From a virus, in the IMG/VR virus record IMGVR_UViG_3300045257_000207, positions 10,059 to 74,058 of that record: 64,000 bases of DNA; one strand, 5' to 3'. Positions 16,226 to 50,943 of this stretch are shown piece by piece. Numbering within the stretch: position 1 is the stretch's first letter; every line of letters starts with the position of its first letter. The position numbers and the translations under genes are program-made. Below the pieces are notes generated by a model. It saw only the letters and a list, made by a program, of their open reading frames with translations, had not been told where the DNA came from and made no database searches.

Positions 16226-17599
16226 ATGAATTCGATCTTTGTACAGATGGCCAGCTATCGTGATCCTCAACTTATTCCAACACTCCAGAATTTGATCAGT
16301 CAAGCCGAACATCCAAAGAATTTGAGAATTGTTGTCTGTTGGCAACATGGGGATGATGAATCCACAGAAGATTTTCTAGGTGCGGATTTCGATATCCAAG
16401 GGTATCGCACGTCAGAAGGAAATGATCCGCGTGATATCATTGAGGCCATCCACAAAGGTGCCATCGTTGAACTTATCGATGTGCCACATTTCGATTCACA
16501 AGGAGCATGCTGGGCACGTAATAAAATTCAGCAATGCTACAATGGAGAGAAATACACTCTTCAACTTGACTCACATCATCGTTTCGTTAAGCATTGGGAT
16601 ACAAAGGTTATCGAAATGTTGGAGAGTGTACGCTATAAAAGCAAGAAGCCGGTCTTGACCGCCTACATTCCAAGCTTTGATCCGGAAAATGATCCACAGG
16701 GTCGCGTCACGGTGCCGTGGAAAATGGACTTTGATCGATTCATCCCGGAAGGGGCAGTTTTCTTTATGCCAGCATCTATTGATGACTGGAAAGAAAGAAA
16801 AGAACCGATGCGAGCTAGGTTTTATTCTGGACATTTCGCATTCGCGGACGGCTCCTTTGCCGTAGAAGTGCAACACGATCCCGACTACTTTTTCCATGGA
16901 GAAGAAATCTCCATCGGCGTCCGGGCCTTTACACACGGATACGATCTTTATCATCCAATAGGGTTGATAGCATGGCACGAATACACACGAAAGGGTCGTA
17001 CCAAGGTTTGGGATGATCACACAACACCAGAAAAGAAGAACGGTAAAATCAAGCTCGACTGGGTGGAACGTAATAACCTGTGTCATCGTAGAAACCGAAT
17101 CTTGTTCGGAATGGACGGTGAAGACCCACGTCAAATAGAATTCGGCAAATACGGCTTCGGAACGGAACGAACGTTACAAGAATTTGAACGGTTTGCCGGG
17201 ATGTCATTCAAATACCGTGCCGTACAACAGTACACCATAGATAAAAAGGAACCCGTCTATCCGGTGGAAAACGTGTATGATACAGAACAGGCTTGGCGTG
17301 ACAGCATGACAACTTCGAATGATGTACGAATATGCTTCCACACCAATCATCTAAAACATCCAAAACTGGACAAGATTCCATCAGACTTTGATTTTTGGTA
17401 TGTGGCGGCACACGACGCAGATGGCGAAATCTTCCGCAAAGACCCAGTGGAAACAGAAATCAAAAATATGATGCAGCACGATTGGATCGACTACCGTTTG
17501 ATTTTTCTATCAAATCGACGCCCGACCAAGTTCGTGGTTTGGCCACATAGCAAAACTGTCGATTGGGGAGAACGATTCGAAATCCCGATCAAGGATTGA
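16226..17599 (+). CDS. GT60-family (Gnt1-like) polypeptide alpha-GlcNAc transferase
   Basis: IFVQMASYRD, GACWAR, LQLDSHHRF, FFHGEEI, RAFTHGYDLYHP. Confidence 0.85.
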   Translation: MNSIFVQMASYRDPQLIPTLQNLISQAEHPKNLRIVVCWQHGDDESTEDFLGADFDIQGYRTSEGNDPRDIIEAIHKGAIVELIDVPHFDSQGACWARNKIQQCYNGEKYTLQLDSHHRFVKHWDTKVIEMLESVRYKSKKPVLTAYIPSFDPENDPQGRVTVPWKMDFDRFIPEGAVFFMPASIDDWKERKEPMRARFYSGHFAFADGSFAVEVQHDPDYFFHGEEISIGVRAFTHGYDLYHPIGLIAWHEYTRKGRTKVWDDHTTPEKKNGKIKLDWVERNNLCHRRNRILFGMDGEDPRQIEFGKYGFGTERTLQEFERFAGMSFKYRAVQQYTIDKKEPVYPVENVYDTEQAWRDSMTTSNDVRICFHTNHLKHPKLDKIPSDFDFWYVAAHDADGEIFRKDPVETEIKNMMQHDWIDYRLIFLSNRRPTKFVVWPHSKTVDWGERFEIPIKD

Positions 17600-17638
17600 A
17601 AAGGCCCCCGTAAATCGGGGGCTTTTCTTGCATAAATA
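17599..17638 (+). terminator. Terminator followed by late promoter CATAAATA (17631-17638)
   Basis: AAAAGGCCCCCG...CGGGGGCTTTT then CATAAATA. Confidence 0.75.
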
Positions 17639-17662
17639 CAGATACCTCAAAAGGCACAGTCA

Positions 17663-48600: not shown

Positions 48601-49693
48601 AATCGGACCGTTCGGTGCAGCAGGATCAACCGCGAACATCACTGGCGGTACAACAGGACAGATTCCATATCAGACTGGAGTAAGCACAACTGGATTTACC
48701 GGCCCCGGCTCTGCTGGACAAGTGCTGCAATCTGCTGGTGCTGCGCAGCCTGTGTATTCGACTGCTACCTATCCTGCAACTGGCGGCGCCAACCTGACGC
48801 ACCTAGCATCCAACGGCACCAACTGGGTCAACACAACCAGCACGTATGCAGACACTTTCTCAGCAGGTACAGTTTTGGTTGCAGCAACTGGCAATACTGT
48901 CACAGGTGTCTCAACTCTACCATCAGGTCTTACAGTTCCGGGATTGCTGACCGCAACAAACAACGCTGTGGCGGCGGCAGGATCAAGTCAGAGTGATGCA
49001 ACAGCTTTGACAAATGATTTCAACGTAGTTACCTCCAGTACAAGCACACAGGGTGTGGTGCTGCAGACTCCTGTGGCTGGTAAGACGGTTGTCGTTGTGA
49101 ATCAAAGCAATTCCTACACGACCGTCTACCCACCGTCGGGTTGTACGATTGACAAGCTAGGCACGAACGTCGGAATCAGGCTGCTTGACGGCCAGCGCGC
49201 AGAGTTTAACGCGATGGACGCCACCCACTGGTATTCCACGCTGGCCGGGATCCGAATCGTCGGACCGTTCCTTAGCGTCGACAACTACCAGTCAGCGGGT
49301 ACCTCGGCAAATCTCTATGTAGTATCCGACGCCACCCAGATGGCCGCAGTACGTTTTGCAGTAGGTTCAGGTCCGTCACTGCGCTGGTCTGTCTACAAAG
49401 ACACAACAACTGAGGCTGGCTCAAATACAGGCTCAAACCTTGTCATTGCCACCCACGCTGATGGTGCTGGTTCGGCTCCTGTAGCTGGCACGCCAGTCGT
49501 TACTGTCAGTCGAGCCGACGGTTCGGTAGTTGCGACAGGTAGCATCCAAACGCCCATGGTAATGGGACAGCATGTGTTGGGCGCGAACTACATAGTCACA
49601 GCAGGATATTACGTTGTTGTGTCACGCTACCTTGAAATTGCATCAGGATTCACCTTAGAAATGGGCATTGACGCCGACTTGGAGATCGTATGA
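45662..49693 (+). CDS. Long mosaic Thr/Ala/Gly-rich fibre protein
   Basis: [10 protein letters not shown] x3, AAG.TQ..ATALT.DFNVVT x2, RW...E.GSN.GS x2; CATAAATA at 45614-45621; GGAG RBS. Confidence 0.85.
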   Translation: MTTVNSNFKVKYNLDVLGTGLSTIAGSLTISSLLTTAASATGSAGLNLPHGAAPTSPVNGDFWSTTTGFFGRVNGATIGPLLDSTGTITNATNAANAATADSSSNSVMFPTFVSATGGNEALKTASSLFTVNPSTGHLGIGGNAGGNNSLYITGTSFGTAATVYGMMNDATIPVTATSACNVYSTNTSTTAGTYTTANMRHFIAQFGTVGQGNTITNMYGFQSPATTANNATVNYGFNGGLAVNTNVNNGQAAATITNVAVTSNVATLTVSAPHGYTTNTVITVAATTHTQLNGSGIVCIAGTTGSTIVYNWTTANISSVADTGSVTPAFNWNFYAAGTAPNYMRGNLIIGTSNTDNGTDKLQLTGSATFTDQVKSTLSTGTAPFVVASTTQVANLNVATAGNIASGAVNQILYQTGAGATGFIATGNNGVLVTDGSGVPTISSTLPTGLSIPGALMSTSNAVTAAGTTQGTATALTSDFNVVTTVGSGQGVVLQTSVAGKTVVVVNKGANALLVYPATSGFIDSLLVNVAISLPVNCWIEFNASSTTHWQSTANALINASGVSGVLSTANLGTGTQTSVTFLRGDGTWSSTLTGNSFTQDNTGAAAQLSHIFNTDTGQIAQFSWKTGNSARWTMGKNGTAEGGSNAGSDFFLTPFDDSGSSLGNAFKVTRSTGLVSITNQATVGINTLTATSGPIATLSTLVAGTSYTNGSYTNVALTGGSGSKALANITVSGTVVTVCTLVRGGSRYSVGDVLSAANTDIGGTGSGFTITVATTTPATLYVTDASTATIRLESQVTAATANQQMGAIYFATRDVNAGATGDIAYIEGVTVGTTGGGALRFYTAPAASATALALTVNSDKSLTFGGTLGAATFTGLVTTVASATGTAGFNLPHGAAPTSPVNGDMWTTSAGGLFTRINGATKTSAFLEGATFTGLLTTVASATGTAGFNVPHGSAPTSPVNGDVWTTTAGMFARINGGTIGPFGAAGSTANITGGTTGQIPYQTGVSTTGFTGPGSAGQVLQSAGAAQPVYSTATYPATGGANLTHLASNGTNWVNTTSTYADTFSAGTVLVAATGNTVTGVSTLPSGLTVPGLLTATNNAVAAAGSSQSDATALTNDFNVVTSSTSTQGVVLQTPVAGKTVVVVNQSNSYTTVYPPSGCTIDKLGTNVGIRLLDGQRAEFNAMDATHWYSTLAGIRIVGPFLSVDNYQSAGTSANLYVVSDATQMAAVRFAVGSGPSLRWSVYKDTTTEAGSNTGSNLVIATHADGAGSAPVAGTPVVTVSRADGSVVATGSIQTPMVMGQHVLGANYIVTAGYYVVVSRYLEIASGFTLEMGIDADLEIV

Positions 49694-50943
49694 GTTACCA
49701 GACCTTTACAAAAACCGCAGCACCCGCTGCACCCGCTGCAAACAAACTAACACAGTACGTCGATACTGCTGATCGTCGGCCAAAAGCCATCGATGACAAC
49801 GGTGTGATCTCTGTGATGACGACAGGAGCATCGTTCGATCGAAACATCATCGACAACGGTGGCTTCACCGTACAACAGCGTGTTGCTACAGCATCGACAG
49901 CGATCGCCGGTGTCTCTACAACAACTCGGGCCGGCGTGGTCGCAGATCGCTGGGCAGTAACGACATCCGTTGCGTCCAACCTGAACTGGGCGCAGATCGA
50001 TACCAACGGTGCCCAGGACACTGGCTTACAGTCTCGTTACTACGGTTCGATCATCTCCTCATCTGCTGGTAAGAAAGTAATGATCTCACAGTGGGTGATC
50101 GGCTCAGCGATGGCTCACCTGAGAGGTCAAAAGGTTCGCGTCAGCATCAAACACAACCAGAAGGTGGGTACCGGTCAGACTTTCAGAATGGGCCTGCTGC
50201 AACTCAATGCATCAGGTACTGTCGATGTATCGCCAGCGTTTCTGACAGGTGCATGGTCAACTACAACTGGTGTTGATCCAGCATGGGGAACCAACCTTGC
50301 TGTGATTGCTCCCGATGCAAGCCCGACCGCTGAAAACGGAACCAACGGCGCCTCGTGGTGTACAGTGACATCCGTCGCGACCACGTGGACTAAGAGTTCT
50401 GCCGTGTTCACGATCCCAACCAACGCGAAGAACCTTGTGATGGTGTTCTTCTCTGATGCTACCGGTGGTACGACTGATAACATCAGTATTGCGGAAGCCC
50501 AAATTACACAAGGCACGGCGATTGTGGATTATGCAGAACCTCCGCTTGCTGAAACTCTTGTAAGATGCCAAAGATTCTTTTGCAAATCTTTCCCGCTTAC
50601 TGTAGTGCCTGCCGCATCCCTGTCAGAAGCTACGGCGGGTTCTGGAGTGTGCAGTATTATTGGATTAGCGGGTGCAACTGCGCTCGCTGTGCATATTCCC
50701 ATTCAATTTCCCGTGCAGATGTGGAAAACTCCTGTTACCTTGACGTACTTCACTCCTACCGCCTCTGGCGCACAGGCGTTCAGATTAGATGGAACCTCCC
50801 CTGCCGCGCAAACCGCAACCGCCTCAAGAACTAGCTCTCTTACTGATCGCGGCGTTCTTTGTACTGCAACTGGTGATGCTAGTGGTGTAGTTGGTAACTT
50901 GGTAGGTGTGCATTACACAGCCGATGCAGAAATAGTCGCCTAA
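49690..50943 (+). CDS. Fibre-associated protein with CBM-like domain
   Basis: NIIDNGGF.VQQR, ADRW, ETLVRCQRFF, FPVQM..P, ADAEI tail-protein pattern. Confidence 0.72.
   Translation: MSYQTFTKTAAPAAPAANKLTQYVDTADRRPKAIDDNGVISVMTTGASFDRNIIDNGGFTVQQRVATASTAIAGVSTTTRAGVVADRWAVTTSVASNLNWAQIDTNGAQDTGLQSRYYGSIISSSAGKKVMISQWVIGSAMAHLRGQKVRVSIKHNQKVGTGQTFRMGLLQLNASGTVDVSPAFLTGAWSTTTGVDPAWGTNLAVIAPDASPTAENGTNGASWCTVTSVATTWTKSSAVFTIPTNAKNLVMVFFSDATGGTTDNISIAEAQITQGTAIVDYAEPPLAETLVRCQRFFCKSFPLTVVPAASLSEATAGSGVCSIIGLAGATALAVHIPIQFPVQMWKTPVTLTYFTPTASGAQAFRLDGTSPAAQTATASRTSSLTDRGVLCTATGDASGVVGNLVGVHYTADAEIVA

Follow-up and report, generated by a model that had tools for sequence, protein, structure and literature searches.

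Gene content of the two glycan clusters

The window, the 64-kb stretch of DNA analysed here, stems from a jumbo myophage of about 350 kb belonging to the XacN1 / Xoo-sp13 / CM1 / RAS14 lineage. About a dozen soluble, cytoplasmic glycan enzymes are encoded at two loci (Table 1), cluster 1 on the plus strand and cluster 2 (27472-33873) on the minus strand. Profile, sequence and structure searches identify 8-9 glycosyltransferase (GT)-type domains as well as carbamoyl-, amino-, acetyl- and pyruvyl-transferases, in agreement with an earlier note on this DNA that counted about eight such domains and four tailoring enzymes. Its observation that flippase, polymerase and membrane-anchored GT are absent also stands: neither cluster shows a flippase, a polymerase or an initiating phosphoglycosyl transferase, and transmembrane prediction finds no segment in any glycan gene of either cluster. 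The placement of the clusters among structural genes holds in part, as replication and nucleotide genes (DNA polymerase, RNase H, ThyA, RNR) surround them to the same degree.

Table 1. Features of the glycan clusters and the fibre region (positions in the window).
Feature	Position	Strand	Evidence
GT60-family (PF11397) soluble glycosyltransferase	16226..17599	+	Pfam E 1.4e-76, profile positions 1-350 of 352
Intergenic hairpin and T-run, then late-type motif CATAAATAC (17631-17639), heading the carbamoyltransferase	17600..17662	+	sequence read
O-carbamoyltransferase (TobZ/NodU/GdmN type, residues ~1-530) with C-terminal GT-A-fold domain (~19202-19969)	17663..19969	+	Pfam Carbam_trans_N, _C; NodU
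Tandem GT-A protein: HtrL_YibB-like N-terminal domain, second GT-A domain with EDD motif	19966..21627	+	Pfam, NCBIfam HtrL_YibB
351-aa protein, homologous to N-terminal module of relatives' PT-linker proteins	25976..27031	-	GATAAATA late-type motif at -33
Small glycosyltransferase (phrog_1962)	27472..28176	-	PHROG E 3.8e-42
NeuD/PglB/VioB-family sugar N-acetyltransferase	28158..28781	-	NCBIfam TIGR03570 E 9e-46
642-aa two-domain protein: N-terminal GT-B (GT4-like) fold, C-terminal domain	28742..30670	-	structure search
PLP sugar aminotransferase, Mimivirus L136 (UDP-viosamine) type	30667..31671	-	Pfam DegT
GT-D-fold-like glycosyltransferase	31680..32441	-	Pfam PF22882 E 2.5e-10; NCBIfam GT-D_rel match under cut-off
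Polysaccharide pyruvyl transferase	32438..33262	-	Pfam PF04230 E 3.4e-15
Maf/MptE-like (DUF115-type) putative glycosyltransferase, first gene of minus-strand operon	33226..33873	-	phrog_4603 E 7.8e-36
Three Thr/Ser/Gly/Ala-rich fibre genes (1395, 1346, 417 aa)	41399..50943	+	phrog_6002 virion structural protein, phrog_4492 tail fiber

The first gene of cluster 1 encodes a GT60 protein related to the protist enzyme that initiates mucin-type sugar chains. Its D115-S116-H117 and HGEE motifs are invariant across 27 phage homologues; more than 80 relatives exist in IMG/VR, and 4 of 50,697 GenBank phage records carry a GT60 gene. To our knowledge, every characterised member of this family glycosylates polypeptides, and the protein is probably an initiating polypeptide GlcNAc-transferase. 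The tandem GT-A protein (AF2 model, pLDDT 91.7) gives Foldseek matches to Mimivirus R699, K4 chondroitin polymerase, LH3 and LARGE1; its modelled architecture appears to be that of the two-site enzymes K4 chondroitin polymerase and LARGE1. The carbamoyltransferase between them matches 7xb6, TobZ and GdmN in a sequence search of the PDB. Its C-terminal domain (model pLDDT 79) has GT6/GT-A matches in Foldseek (E ~5e-7, TM ~0.5) and aligns weakly to the HtrL family (hhalign, 9.7% probability).

Since small molecules are the substrates of TobZ, NodU and GdmN homologues, and metabolite synthesis has been proposed by Iyer et al. for cyanophage carbamoyltransferase clusters (PMC7824862), the enzymes might produce a free glycosylated compound, either a secondary metabolite or a signalling glycan, and decorate no macromolecule. 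We consider this extremely unlikely: the window encodes no PKS, NRPS, cyclase or other aglycone-forming enzyme, the carbamoyltransferase carries a fused GT-A fold and is flanked by two protein- or glycan-type GTs, and the association with Pro-Thr (PT) linker genes described below would be left without explanation.

A phage carbamoyltransferase of the TobZ family is also known to modify 5hmC and co-occurs with ThyA homologues (PMC8670742), and the DNA of YerA41 carries an oligosaccharide-like T adduct (PMC9023294). In the window, ThyA is encoded 4.6 kb from the carbamoyltransferase, with DNA polymerase, RNase H and RNR nearby. The phage DNA could accordingly be hypermodified, a hydroxymethyl-pyrimidine being carbamoylated and/or glycosylated as in 5-carbamoyloxymethylcytosine, glucosyl-hmC or the YerA41 thymidine adduct of ~1 kDa. 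However, the window ThyA has retained Asn177 (E. coli numbering) and Cys146-His147, is about 50% identical to T4-like Td, and is therefore of the dUMP, thymidylate-synthase type. The complete relative G003 retains GT60, carbamoyltransferase and HtrL-like gene without any ThyA-family gene, carbamoyltransferases on unmodified contigs are flanked by GTs, and GT60 enzymes target proteins. In the window and its relatives, no path to hydroxymethyl-pyrimidine DNA emerged; a control search for Tet/JBP gave zero matches in five complete relatives, but this control matched nowhere at all. BssHII, NaeI and SpeI digest XacN1 DNA, and XacN1 virions yield at least two Schiff-stained bands (PMC5852040), which could be co-purified host polysaccharide. 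Given the Schiff-positive virions, the restriction-cut DNA and the Asn177 of ThyA, modification of DNA is very improbable.

Cluster 2 combines further GTs with sugar-modifying enzymes. The aminotransferase aligns over its full length to Mimivirus L136 (PDB 7mfo, E 4.2e-46; next match 3e-9), including the lysine motif HHTK, and the best solved relative of the N-acetyltransferase is VioB (7txp, E 1.9e-28). Together with the pyruvyl transferase, these enzymes resemble the N-acetylviosamine/pyruvate module of Mimivirus, a likeness read, for the window, from its genes; the Vio4NAc/pyruvate fibril cluster of Mimivirus has been described (PMC10117803). The parallel had been drawn in the earlier note and is closer than was guessed there, L136 being by far the best solved relative of the aminotransferase. 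Residues 1-380 of the 642-aa protein align to GT4/GT1 clusters in a structure search of the ESM Atlas (TM 0.44-0.49 by query, 0.35-0.78 by target), while the protein has no match in Pfam, PHROG or PDB sequences and no relative in IMG/VR. The Pfam MptE-like match of the Maf-like protein is weak and under the cut-off. Homologues of the small GT adjoin PT-linker protein genes in XacN1 and in two further relatives (G001 and G003). The five middle genes of the cluster have no relatives among other phages of the lineage; a link to the same glycan is suggested by homologues of the pyruvyl transferase elsewhere (see below) and by the conserved flanking genes. The adjacent gene 25976-27031 does not encode an enzyme: its product shares 39-44% identity with the N-termini of XacN1 ORF370, G001 9182-10693 and G003 227955-230195, each of which continues from this N-terminal module into PT linkers.

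A T4-late-like motif, ATAAATA, lies upstream of several glycan genes and of tail and fibre genes, and occurs 25 times in the window where 9 occurrences are expected (ATAAATAC: 10 versus 2.1 expected). The extended form CATAAATAC at the carbamoyltransferase is shared with the tail tube gene and both large fibre genes (41354 and 45615). The motif reported in the earlier note ahead of the carbamoyltransferase is real, whereas the one ahead of the minus-strand operon (33889) is a motif-like site, the one-mismatch variant TCTAAATA. The GT60 gene has no late-type motif. The glycan genes are probably expressed late, at least in part, with the tail and fibre genes.

A conserved gene pair and its association with Pro-Thr linkers

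The GT60 gene and the gene for the tandem GT-A (HtrL-like) protein form a conserved pair in many large phages. In 67 of 81 loci, the HtrL-like gene follows GT60 on the same strand at a distance of 1.2-7 kb. The genes in between vary by phage and include carbamoyltransferase, GT25, GT34-methyltransferase fusions, sugar O-methyltransferases and pyruvyl transferases, the latter being homologues of the cluster 2 enzyme (38-42% identical in loci L003 and L039).

The genomes that harbor GT60 also encode proteins with PT (TPTxT) linkers. Such ORFs number 14-18 per complete genome (G001 18, G003 15, XacN1 14) and 1-7 on partial contigs (G005 6, G006 7, G007 1, and 1 on the contig of the window), with zero in the GT60-negative controls RsoM2USA, which has the backbone genes of this lineage, and RaK2, which is more distant. 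Conversely, when IMG/VR contigs of 160 kb or more were chosen solely by TPTxTPTxTPT-coding DNA, 6 of the 9 proved to have GT60, compared with the base rate in GenBank phage records given above; many of the compared contigs are interrelated, and the counts are therefore not independent events. Two complete PT-positive contigs (G013 and G015) lack GT60, so that GT60 is no strict requirement for PT linkers.

PT-protein genes adjoin GT60 or Maf/GT genes in many relatives. Among 42 non-redundant distant loci, 14 have a PT-ORF as an immediate neighbour of the pair, either upstream of GT60 or downstream of the HtrL-like gene. In XacN1, nine minus-strand genes in a row begin with the Maf-like homologue ORF375 and go on with ORF374, ORF373 (GT), ORF372-369 (PT-linker proteins), ORF368 (sheath stabiliser) and ORF367 (tail sheath); the neighbourhood is the same in G001 and G003. 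No PT-linker protein is encoded inside the window. The single PT stalk of the 74-kb contig (about 150 residues, at residues 2342-2495) belongs to a giant protein (at least 3117 aa) whose gene lies a short way upstream of the window and neighbours those of the sheath stabiliser and the sheath. The protein matches the virion structural protein family phrog_10938 and has SPRY and ConA-like domains after the stalk. The virion location of this family is taken from the PHROG annotation; that of most PT-linker proteins is an assumption. A PTVTPTP domain is known to bear GlcNAc-linked glycans in gp72 of T. cruzi (PMC3630849).

The earlier note proposed that the glycan is built on mucin-like fibres of the phage. 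The comparison favours a protein of the phage itself as target, but points away from these fibres. Their dominance by Thr, Ser, Gly and Ala over about 12 kb is confirmed (T+S+G+A 45-54%, Thr 13-21%); a mucin-like character is not, with Pro at 3-4% and structured-looking repeats of about 267 aa in place of an extended mucin-type tract. That they are nevertheless the main acceptors, with PT linkers as minor targets or one among several, would fit the Thr content, the CATAAATAC motif shared with the carbamoyltransferase and the position about 7 kb downstream of cluster 2. Moreover, the syntenic position after RNR is occupied in XacN1 by ORF384, a PT-linker protein of 2823 aa, so the fibres may be its functional replacement. 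We still judge this assignment unlikely: the expected co-occurrence with the clusters failed to appear, as the fibres, in contrast to the conserved GT60 and HtrL-like genes, have no homologues in the GT60-positive relatives compared, and they neither co-vary with nor adjoin the enzymes. The fibres are possible but unsupported acceptors, and the co-variation suggests that PT linkers are the better candidates.

Discussion

Some of the family assignments would also fit an action on the host envelope. HtrL/YibB and GT25 are families familiar from LPS core loci, the pyruvyl transferase is likewise typical of LPS and EPS loci, and undecaprenyl-linked intermediates are common substrates of peripheral, soluble GTs. 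A 4-keto-6-deoxy precursor would have to come from the host or from a part of the genome beyond the contig. The clusters may thus remodel a host envelope polysaccharide (LPS core/O-antigen, EPS or capsule) during infection via host lipid-linked intermediates, for instance for superinfection block or progeny release; the glycan clusters of jumbo cyanophages have been read in this way by Iyer et al. 2021 (PMC7824862). For the window we regard this as quite improbable. GT60 belongs to a polypeptide-glycosylating family, both clusters lack the initiating, flipping, polymerising and membrane components noted above, glycan and structural genes share the late-type motif, and the enzymes co-occur with and adjoin PT-linker genes, in XacN1 as a one-strand run into the tail genes. 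Serotype conversion would also be of little gain to a lytic jumbo phage.

The polypeptide specificity of the GT60 family, the solubility of the enzymes, the shared late motif, the Schiff-stained bands of XacN1 and the missing route to hydroxymethyl-pyrimidines favour a phage-encoded glycosylation of the phage's own proteins, by initiation on PT linkers, extension and tailoring, which we hold to be reasonably probable. We infer the glycosylation itself, its acceptor, the sugar identities and the timing, as follows. GT60 would transfer GlcNAc from host UDP-GlcNAc to Thr/Ser of the extended PT linkers in appendage and decoration proteins of the phage, and the conserved tandem GT-A protein would extend the chain. 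The small GT, GT-B, GT-D-like and Maf-like proteins may add further sugars. Tailoring would diversify the glycan in three ways: the carbamoyltransferase/GT-A fusion would O-carbamoylate it, and a pyruvate ketal as well as a 4-acetamido-4,6-dideoxyhexose of the N-acetylviosamine type would be added. For the latter, the L136-like aminotransferase would act with the VioB-like acetyltransferase on a 4-keto-6-deoxy sugar nucleotide, supplied by the host or by the 79% of the genome beyond the contig. Expression would be at least partly late, together with tail and fibre genes. The glycan would probably coat the stalks on which the lectin-like tip domains sit, as a stiff layer that resists proteases and varies antigenically.

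The source phage and its relatives

The window covers bases 10059-74058 of its parent IMG/VR contig (74 kb, CheckV completeness about 21%), which belongs to a jumbo phage. Within the window are genes for a tail sheath, two tail tube proteins, head closure, a cell-wall hydrolase, a T4-type DNA polymerase, RNase H, thymidylate synthase (ThyA), a class I ribonucleotide reductase, fibres, papain-like peptidases and lysozyme. The nearest cultured relatives are the jumbo myophages XacN1 and Xoo-sp13 of Xanthomonas and CM1 and RAS14 of Stenotrophomonas. All four harbor the core genes, with identities of 49-50% for the carbamoyltransferase and 58-62% for the GT60 enzyme. 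ORF348 to ORF329 of XacN1 follow the gene order of the window from head closure to the tandem glycosyltransferase (GT) gene. These relatives, together with the matching order, therefore point to a phage of roughly 350 kb from the XacN1 lineage. A megablast search of both glycan clusters against GenBank phages gave zero matches.

XacN1 carries orthologues of GT60 (ORF334, 62% identity), the carbamoyltransferase (ORF333), the tandem GT-A enzyme (ORF330), the Maf-like protein (ORF375) and the small GT, in the same order as the window. It differs in lacking five consecutive genes of cluster 2 (aminotransferase, acetyltransferase, GT-B, GT-D and pyruvyl transferase), and two further genes, ORF331 and ORF332, separate its carbamoyltransferase from its tandem GT-A gene. 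Between phrog_11259 and the gene of an RlaP nucleotidyltransferase, the window has an HNH endonuclease gene that carries its own TATAAATA; relatives lack it at that site, which makes a homing-endonuclease insertion probable. Scattered downstream of the fibre genes are two genes for papain-like (C1) peptidases and two for metallophosphoesterases. In XacN1, a homologous C1 peptidase and metallophosphoesterase flank ORF384, a protein of 2823 aa with a Pro-Thr (PT) linker.

Features of the window and its parent contig, with the matches on which their assignment is based
Feature	Position	Strand	Assignment
Giant PT-stalk protein	L087:1-9354 (707-10057 bases before window start)		first ORF of the contig, >=3117 aa
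DSBH-like protein	7746-8366		2OG-oxygenase-like
GT60 enzyme	16226-17599	+	full-length PF11397, E 1.4e-76; 258.7 bits (cut-off 21), profile 1-350/352
Carbamoyltransferase/GT-A fusion	17663-19969	+	TobZ/NodU-type O-carbamoyltransferase; PF02543 (Kae1-like N-terminal), PF16861 (YrdC-like C-terminal)
Tandem GT-A enzyme	19966-21627	+	553 aa; HtrL_YibB-type N-terminal domain, second domain with EDD motif
HNH endonuclease	22876-23589
ThyA	24585-25757		if started at the TTG
351-aa ORF	25976-27031		N-terminal module of PT-linker proteins
Maf/MptE-like protein	cluster 2, first gene	-	phrog_4603 ('alpha-2,3-sialyltransferase'), E 7.8e-36
Pyruvyl transferase	cluster 2, second gene	-
GT-D-like protein	cluster 2, third gene	-	PF22882, 40.5 bits (cut-off 27), profile 3-208/210
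DegT aminotransferase	cluster 2, fourth gene	-
642-aa protein	cluster 2, fifth gene	-	residues 1-380 GT-B/GT4-like (ESM Atlas)
NeuD/VioB-type acetyltransferase	cluster 2, sixth gene	-
Small GT	cluster 2, last gene	-	phrog_1962
Fibre genes	41399-50943
1395-aa fibre	41399-45586		C-terminal third matches phrog_6002 (virion structural protein)
Papain-like (C1) peptidases	51290-52126, 60474-61271
tRNA-Gly(GCC)	52460-52535
Metallophosphoesterases	54563-55285, 59669-60475

Cluster 1 and the conserved GT60 locus

Cluster 1 begins with the GT60 gene. Three motifs of its product (D115-S116-H117, H224-G-E-E and G238-Y-D-L) are invariant among 27 phage homologues, and we take the D-S-H to be the catalytic metal motif of GT27/GT60 enzymes. 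The match to the protist family, which includes the mucin pp-alphaGlcNAcT of T. cruzi, a Golgi GlcNAc-T of Dictyostelium and Skp1 Gnt1, is high-scoring and full-length, with the D-S-H conserved. Like Skp1 Gnt1 the phage enzyme is soluble and cytoplasmic; its place in a bacteriophage genome and a C-terminal extension of about 100 aa set it apart from the protist enzymes. We regard it as a predicted polypeptide GlcNAc-transferase, of which both sugar and acceptor are putative.

The kinship with Skp1 Gnt1 raises a Skp1-like route, with GlcNAc attached to hydroxyproline (Hyp). This route is unlikely: the active prolyl hydroxylase that partners the Dictyostelium pathway is absent from the window, whose sole DSBH-like protein, along with 16 homologues, has no conserved HxD...H triad and no Pfam match. 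The idea of a prolyl hydroxylase was set aside on account of the missing metal triad, and with no active hydroxylase the GT60 acceptor would not be Hyp. The DSBH-like protein itself adjoins head and tail genes lineage-wide, including in the GT60-negative phage RsoM2USA. It is probably non-catalytic, because the triad is not conserved, and possibly structural. Sequence searches of the PDB gave no useful match for GT60, the DSBH-like protein, the 642-aa protein or the pyruvyl transferase.

The second gene encodes a carbamoyltransferase (PDB sequence matches 7xb6, TobZ and GdmN, 1e-37 to 6e-42) with about 240 extra C-terminal residues. These adopt a GT-A fold in a model built with 14 homologues (pLDDT 79), for which the best Foldseek matches are GT6 blood-group transferases (E ~5e-7, TM ~0.5). 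A reading of this C-terminus as a 'dead copy' of the neighbouring HtrL domain was cut back to a GT-A-fold domain in view of the model, an insignificant BLASTP comparison with the HtrL-like protein (E 6.4) and a profile-profile alignment with HtrL that is collinear and weak (9.7% probability, E 0.0033). The third gene, that of the tandem GT-A enzyme, has a start overlapping with the carbamoyltransferase stop. Its product was modelled with 35 homologues (pLDDT 91.7) and matches enzymes with two GT-A domains: Mimivirus R699 (the top Foldseek match), the E. coli K4 chondroitin polymerase K4CP, LH3 and LARGE1. K4CP and LARGE1 share the tandem arrangement (Foldseek E 1e-11 to 1e-9), although their sequence identity to the phage protein is only about 10% and different domain orientations keep the whole-chain TM low. 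Its architecture suggests that the tandem GT-A protein may be a polymerising enzyme.

More than 80 relatives of GT60 (42-64% identity) are found in IMG/VR, including in complete genomes of 287-350 kb. In 67 of 81 loci an HtrL-like tandem-GT gene follows on the same strand, 1.2-7 kb downstream. The genes in between vary by phage: a carbamoyltransferase in 29 loci and, elsewhere, GT25, GT34/methyltransferase fusions or sugar O-methyltransferases of the CmcI and FkbM types. The commonest (37 loci; for example L017:13698-14666 and XacN1 ORF332) is a family of about 295 aa without a Pfam match, which the window lacks. As judged from gene content, the pattern is that of a variable tailoring cassette framed by two conserved genes, one for a putative initiator and one for a putative extender. 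In two loci (L003 and L039) the interval holds a pyruvyl transferase, 38-42% identical to the cluster 2 enzyme of the window, which ties cluster 2 to cluster 1.

A carbamoyltransferase and GTs close to nucleotide-metabolism genes are also what phage DNA hypermodification systems look like. A phage TobZ-family enzyme, which co-occurs with ThyA homologues, carbamoylates 5hmC (PMC8670742), and T in the DNA of phage YerA41 bears an oligosaccharide-like adduct (PMC9023294). That the clusters act on phage DNA is nevertheless unlikely. The ThyA of the window, about 50% identical to T4-type Td, keeps Asn177 (not the dCMP-type Asp177) and Cys146-His147, and a ThyA-family gene is missing from G003, a complete relative in IMG/VR that does have the GT60/carbamoyltransferase/HtrL cluster. 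Glycosyltransferases are reported to flank the carbamoyltransferases of unmodified contigs (PMC8670742), and BssHII, NaeI and SpeI all cut the DNA of XacN1 (PMC5852040). No Tet/JBP gene was detected in five complete relatives, a weak negative as this search had no positive control. Moreover, the lead GT of the window, unlike those of DNA hypermodification systems, comes from a protein-acting family. Read from its TTG, the ThyA ORF has a Cys-rich N-terminal extension of 107 aa that is absent from its relatives (288-318 aa); either the gene truly starts near residue 106 or it is preceded by a small zinc-ribbon-like ORF.

Cluster 2 and its likeness to Mimivirus

Cluster 2 is a tightly packed operon on the minus strand, running from 33873 down to 27472. 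Its Maf-like protein scores 22.3 bits against the Pfam MptE-like profile (cut-off 34.6), with 39 residues covered. The GT-D-type transferase named in the earlier note is upheld by Pfam; against NCBIfam GT-D_rel the protein stays under the cut-off. The 642-aa protein had no relatives in a pattern scan of IMG/VR. Profile, PHROG, NCBIfam and structure matches bear out the count, for the two clusters together, of about eight GT-type domains and four tailoring enzymes. The 351-aa ORF beyond the 3' end of the operon was rejected as a tenth glycan enzyme: it corresponds to the N-terminal module of XacN1 ORF370 and of its counterparts in the IMG/VR contigs G001 and G003, and all three of these proteins run on into PT linkers.

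The corresponding stretch of XacN1 is a run of nine adjacent genes on the minus strand: ORF375 (Maf-like), ORF374, ORF373 (small GT), ORF372-369 (PT-linker proteins), ORF368 (sheath stabiliser) and ORF367 (sheath). G001 and G003 share this neighbourhood. Because the 351-aa ORF matches the N-terminal module of such PT-linker proteins, cluster 2 represents the form that a conserved 'Maf - GT - PT-protein' locus takes in this phage, with five additional genes inserted. These five are without relatives in the lineage and have a GC content of 0.41, compared to 0.44-0.48.

The parallel to Mimivirus drawn earlier holds for all three tailoring enzymes concerned. The best solved relative of the aminotransferase is Mimivirus L136, a UDP-viosamine aminotransferase (7mfo; E 4.2e-46, full length); the PLP-lysine motif aligns, and the next PDB match reaches only 3e-9. 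The acetyltransferase is closest to VioB (7txp, E 1.9e-28), and the pyruvyl transferase completes the set. In Mimivirus, R141, L136 and L142 yield UDP-Vio4NAc, and GlcNAc of the fibril glycan is pyruvylated by L143 (PMC10117803). That fibril cluster (R132-L143, with the R141 dehydratase, the L142 acetyltransferase/GT and GT2s) is virus-encoded and ER-independent, and it brings together an amino sugar of the Vio4NAc type, pyruvyl transferase activity and several GTs, as the pathway predicted for the window would; in Megavirus clusters, too, a GT-D-type GT adjoins a pyruvyl transferase (PMC10117803). The glycan of the phage may thus include a sugar of the N-acetylviosamine type. Differences are that the 74-kb contig lacks a 4,6-dehydratase and a sugar methyltransferase, that the presumed initiator is GT60, that a carbamoyltransferase is added, that the host is bacterial, and that the proposed acceptors are PT linkers instead of GMC-oxidoreductase fibrils. 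An R141-like sugar-nucleotide 4,6-dehydratase was absent among the scanned ORFs of the window (the contig being about 21% of the genome); a host RmlB-type enzyme or the remaining 79% of the genome could supply it.

Pro-Thr linkers as candidate acceptors

The earlier note had placed the glycans on 'mucin-like' fibres. The three fibre proteins are indeed rich in Thr (13-21%; T+S+G+A 45-54%), but Pro amounts to only 3-4% and the best 30-aa window reaches 53% P+T+S. The 1395-aa fibre consists largely of structured-looking, Thr-rich repeats of about 267 aa (two full and two partial copies). The fibres therefore lack the extended, low-complexity tract of Pro, Thr and Ser that a mucin-type acceptor would have, and 'mucin-like' does not describe them well. 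Nor do the fibres co-occur with the clusters in relatives: none of the relatives compared, including the GT60-positive ones, has a homologue, and it is PT linkers that co-vary instead. The single tRNA gene of the window, tRNA-Gly(GCC), sits just past these Gly-rich fibre genes, with a perfect TATAAATA 7 nt upstream (region 52446-52535).

A protein with a PT stalk is encoded by the first ORF of the contig itself, adjoining the sheath-stabiliser and sheath genes. Its conserved body of about 2300 aa matches phrog_10938 ('virion structural protein') and is 41% identical to XacN1 ORF325; beyond residue ~2300 it differs among relatives. Residues 2342-2495 form a stalk of about 150 aa of PTITVT-type repeats and a Gly7 run (P+T+S 83%); C-terminal to it lie SPRY and ConA-like lectin domains. 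Thr/Pro repeats like those of the phage candidates also occur in T. cruzi gp72, in its PTVTPTP domain.

Relatives were scanned for 40-aa windows with P+T+S of at least 62% and P of at least 15%. Among GT60-positive phages, PT-linker ORFs number 18 in G001, 15 in G003, 14 in XacN1, 6 in G005, 7 in G006, 1 in G007 and 1 in the contig studied here (about 21% of a genome; upstream of the window); RsoM2USA and RaK2, both without GT60, have none. RsoM2USA has the backbone genes of the lineage and is therefore a close negative control, and base composition does not explain the tracts, since GC ranges from 35 to 50% across GT60-positive genomes. For the reverse test, IMG/VR was scanned for DNA coding for TPTxTPTxTPT, giving at least 120 stretches. 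PF11397 exceeds its cut-off in 6 of the 9 searchable PT-repeat contigs of at least 160 kb and is found in 4 of 50,697 GenBank phage records; as many of the compared contigs are interrelated, all counts relating GT60 and PT linkers overstate independence. Two complete genomes of ~170-180 kb (G013 and G015, behind loci L195 and L251) have PT-repeat proteins and no PF11397 gene, so that either another transferase serves these proteins or their linkers are unglycosylated. In 14 of 42 non-redundant distant loci, a PT-linker ORF of the same strand is the immediate 5' neighbour of GT60 or the immediate 3' neighbour of the HtrL-like gene.

Solubility and promoter motifs

No product of either cluster has a hydrophobic segment that could span the membrane, and the window has no Pfam families of a Wzx/Wzy-type module (membrane initiating transferase, flippase, polymerase), as the earlier note had stated. 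Soluble GTs can, however, act on lipid-linked intermediates, and HtrL and GT25 are LPS-type families; it is hence possible that the enzymes remodel the host envelope. Such remodelling would leave unexplained the GT60 family, the association with PT linkers and the late-type motif described below.

The core of the T4 late promoter, ATAAATA, occurs 25 times in the window (9 expected) and ATAAATAC 10 times (2 expected). A late-type motif lies 20-65 nt upstream of the sheath, tube, lysozyme and both large fibre genes, and likewise of the carbamoyltransferase gene (behind a terminator-like hairpin) and the 351-aa ORF. Another precedes the aminotransferase gene, internal to the cluster 2 operon. Of the two late motifs claimed for the glycan genes, that of the carbamoyltransferase is thus confirmed, whereas the operon start at 33873 has TCTAAATA only; upstream of GT60 there is none. 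With this distribution, late expression is plausible for part of the glycan system.

Discussion

The observations of the earlier note largely stand, and reading the clusters as a virion glycosylation system was right in kind, with the acceptor shifting from Thr-rich fibres to PT-linker proteins. It is possible, though we would stop short of calling it probable, that a lineage of jumbo phages has a cytoplasmic mucin-type O-glycosylation, with a GT60 primer, a tandem GT-A polymeriser and swappable tailoring, that builds a phage 'glycocalyx'. In each virion, at least a dozen presumed appendage proteins would have Thr of their Pro-Thr stalks primed by GT60, and the tandem GT-A enzyme would polymerise a repeating glycan on this primer. 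Swappable cassettes (carbamoyl, pyruvate ketal, O-methyl, N-acetylviosamine) would vary the coat between phages, in a manner comparable to an O-antigen locus. Such a coat would be convergent with Mimivirus fibrils and may influence how the phage adsorbs, how stable it is and how hosts and predators recognise it.

Chloroviruses, mimiviruses and some mycobacteriophages are established cases of particle glycosylation by the virus's own enzymes. Among phages with Gram-negative hosts the evidence rests, to our knowledge, on one unexplained Schiff stain, that of XacN1, and we know of the GT60 family only from protist mucin and Skp1 glycosylation. Our literature searches met with no description of a phage GT60 enzyme or of phage proteins with glycosylated Pro-Thr (Thr-rich) linkers. 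The XacN1 paper describes at least two Schiff-positive virion bands, which its authors guessed to be caused by the two GTs they had annotated; its text neither names the stained glycoproteins nor mentions PT linkers (PMC5852040). In mycobacteriophages, capsid and tail-tube subunits are modified at their C-termini by one to a few phage GTs (Freeman et al. 2023, cited in PMC12619734). Phage-encoded GTs, the phage's own structural proteins as (here proposed) acceptors and the bacterial cytoplasm are common to both cases. The window differs in having 8-9 GT-type domains of other families together with four tailoring enzymes, and in its presumed targets, mucin-like linkers on appendage proteins of a Gram-negative jumbo phage.

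The carbamoyltransferase-GT-A fusion and an L136-like aminotransferase in a phage are of enzymological interest. If the proposed system is real, glycosylation in a widespread phage system would start with GT60, and the puzzling Pro-Thr tracts of many large-phage proteins would be explained. It would also imply a hypervariable surface chemistry bearing on host range and phage stability, with relevance for the immune recognition of therapeutic and biocontrol phages.
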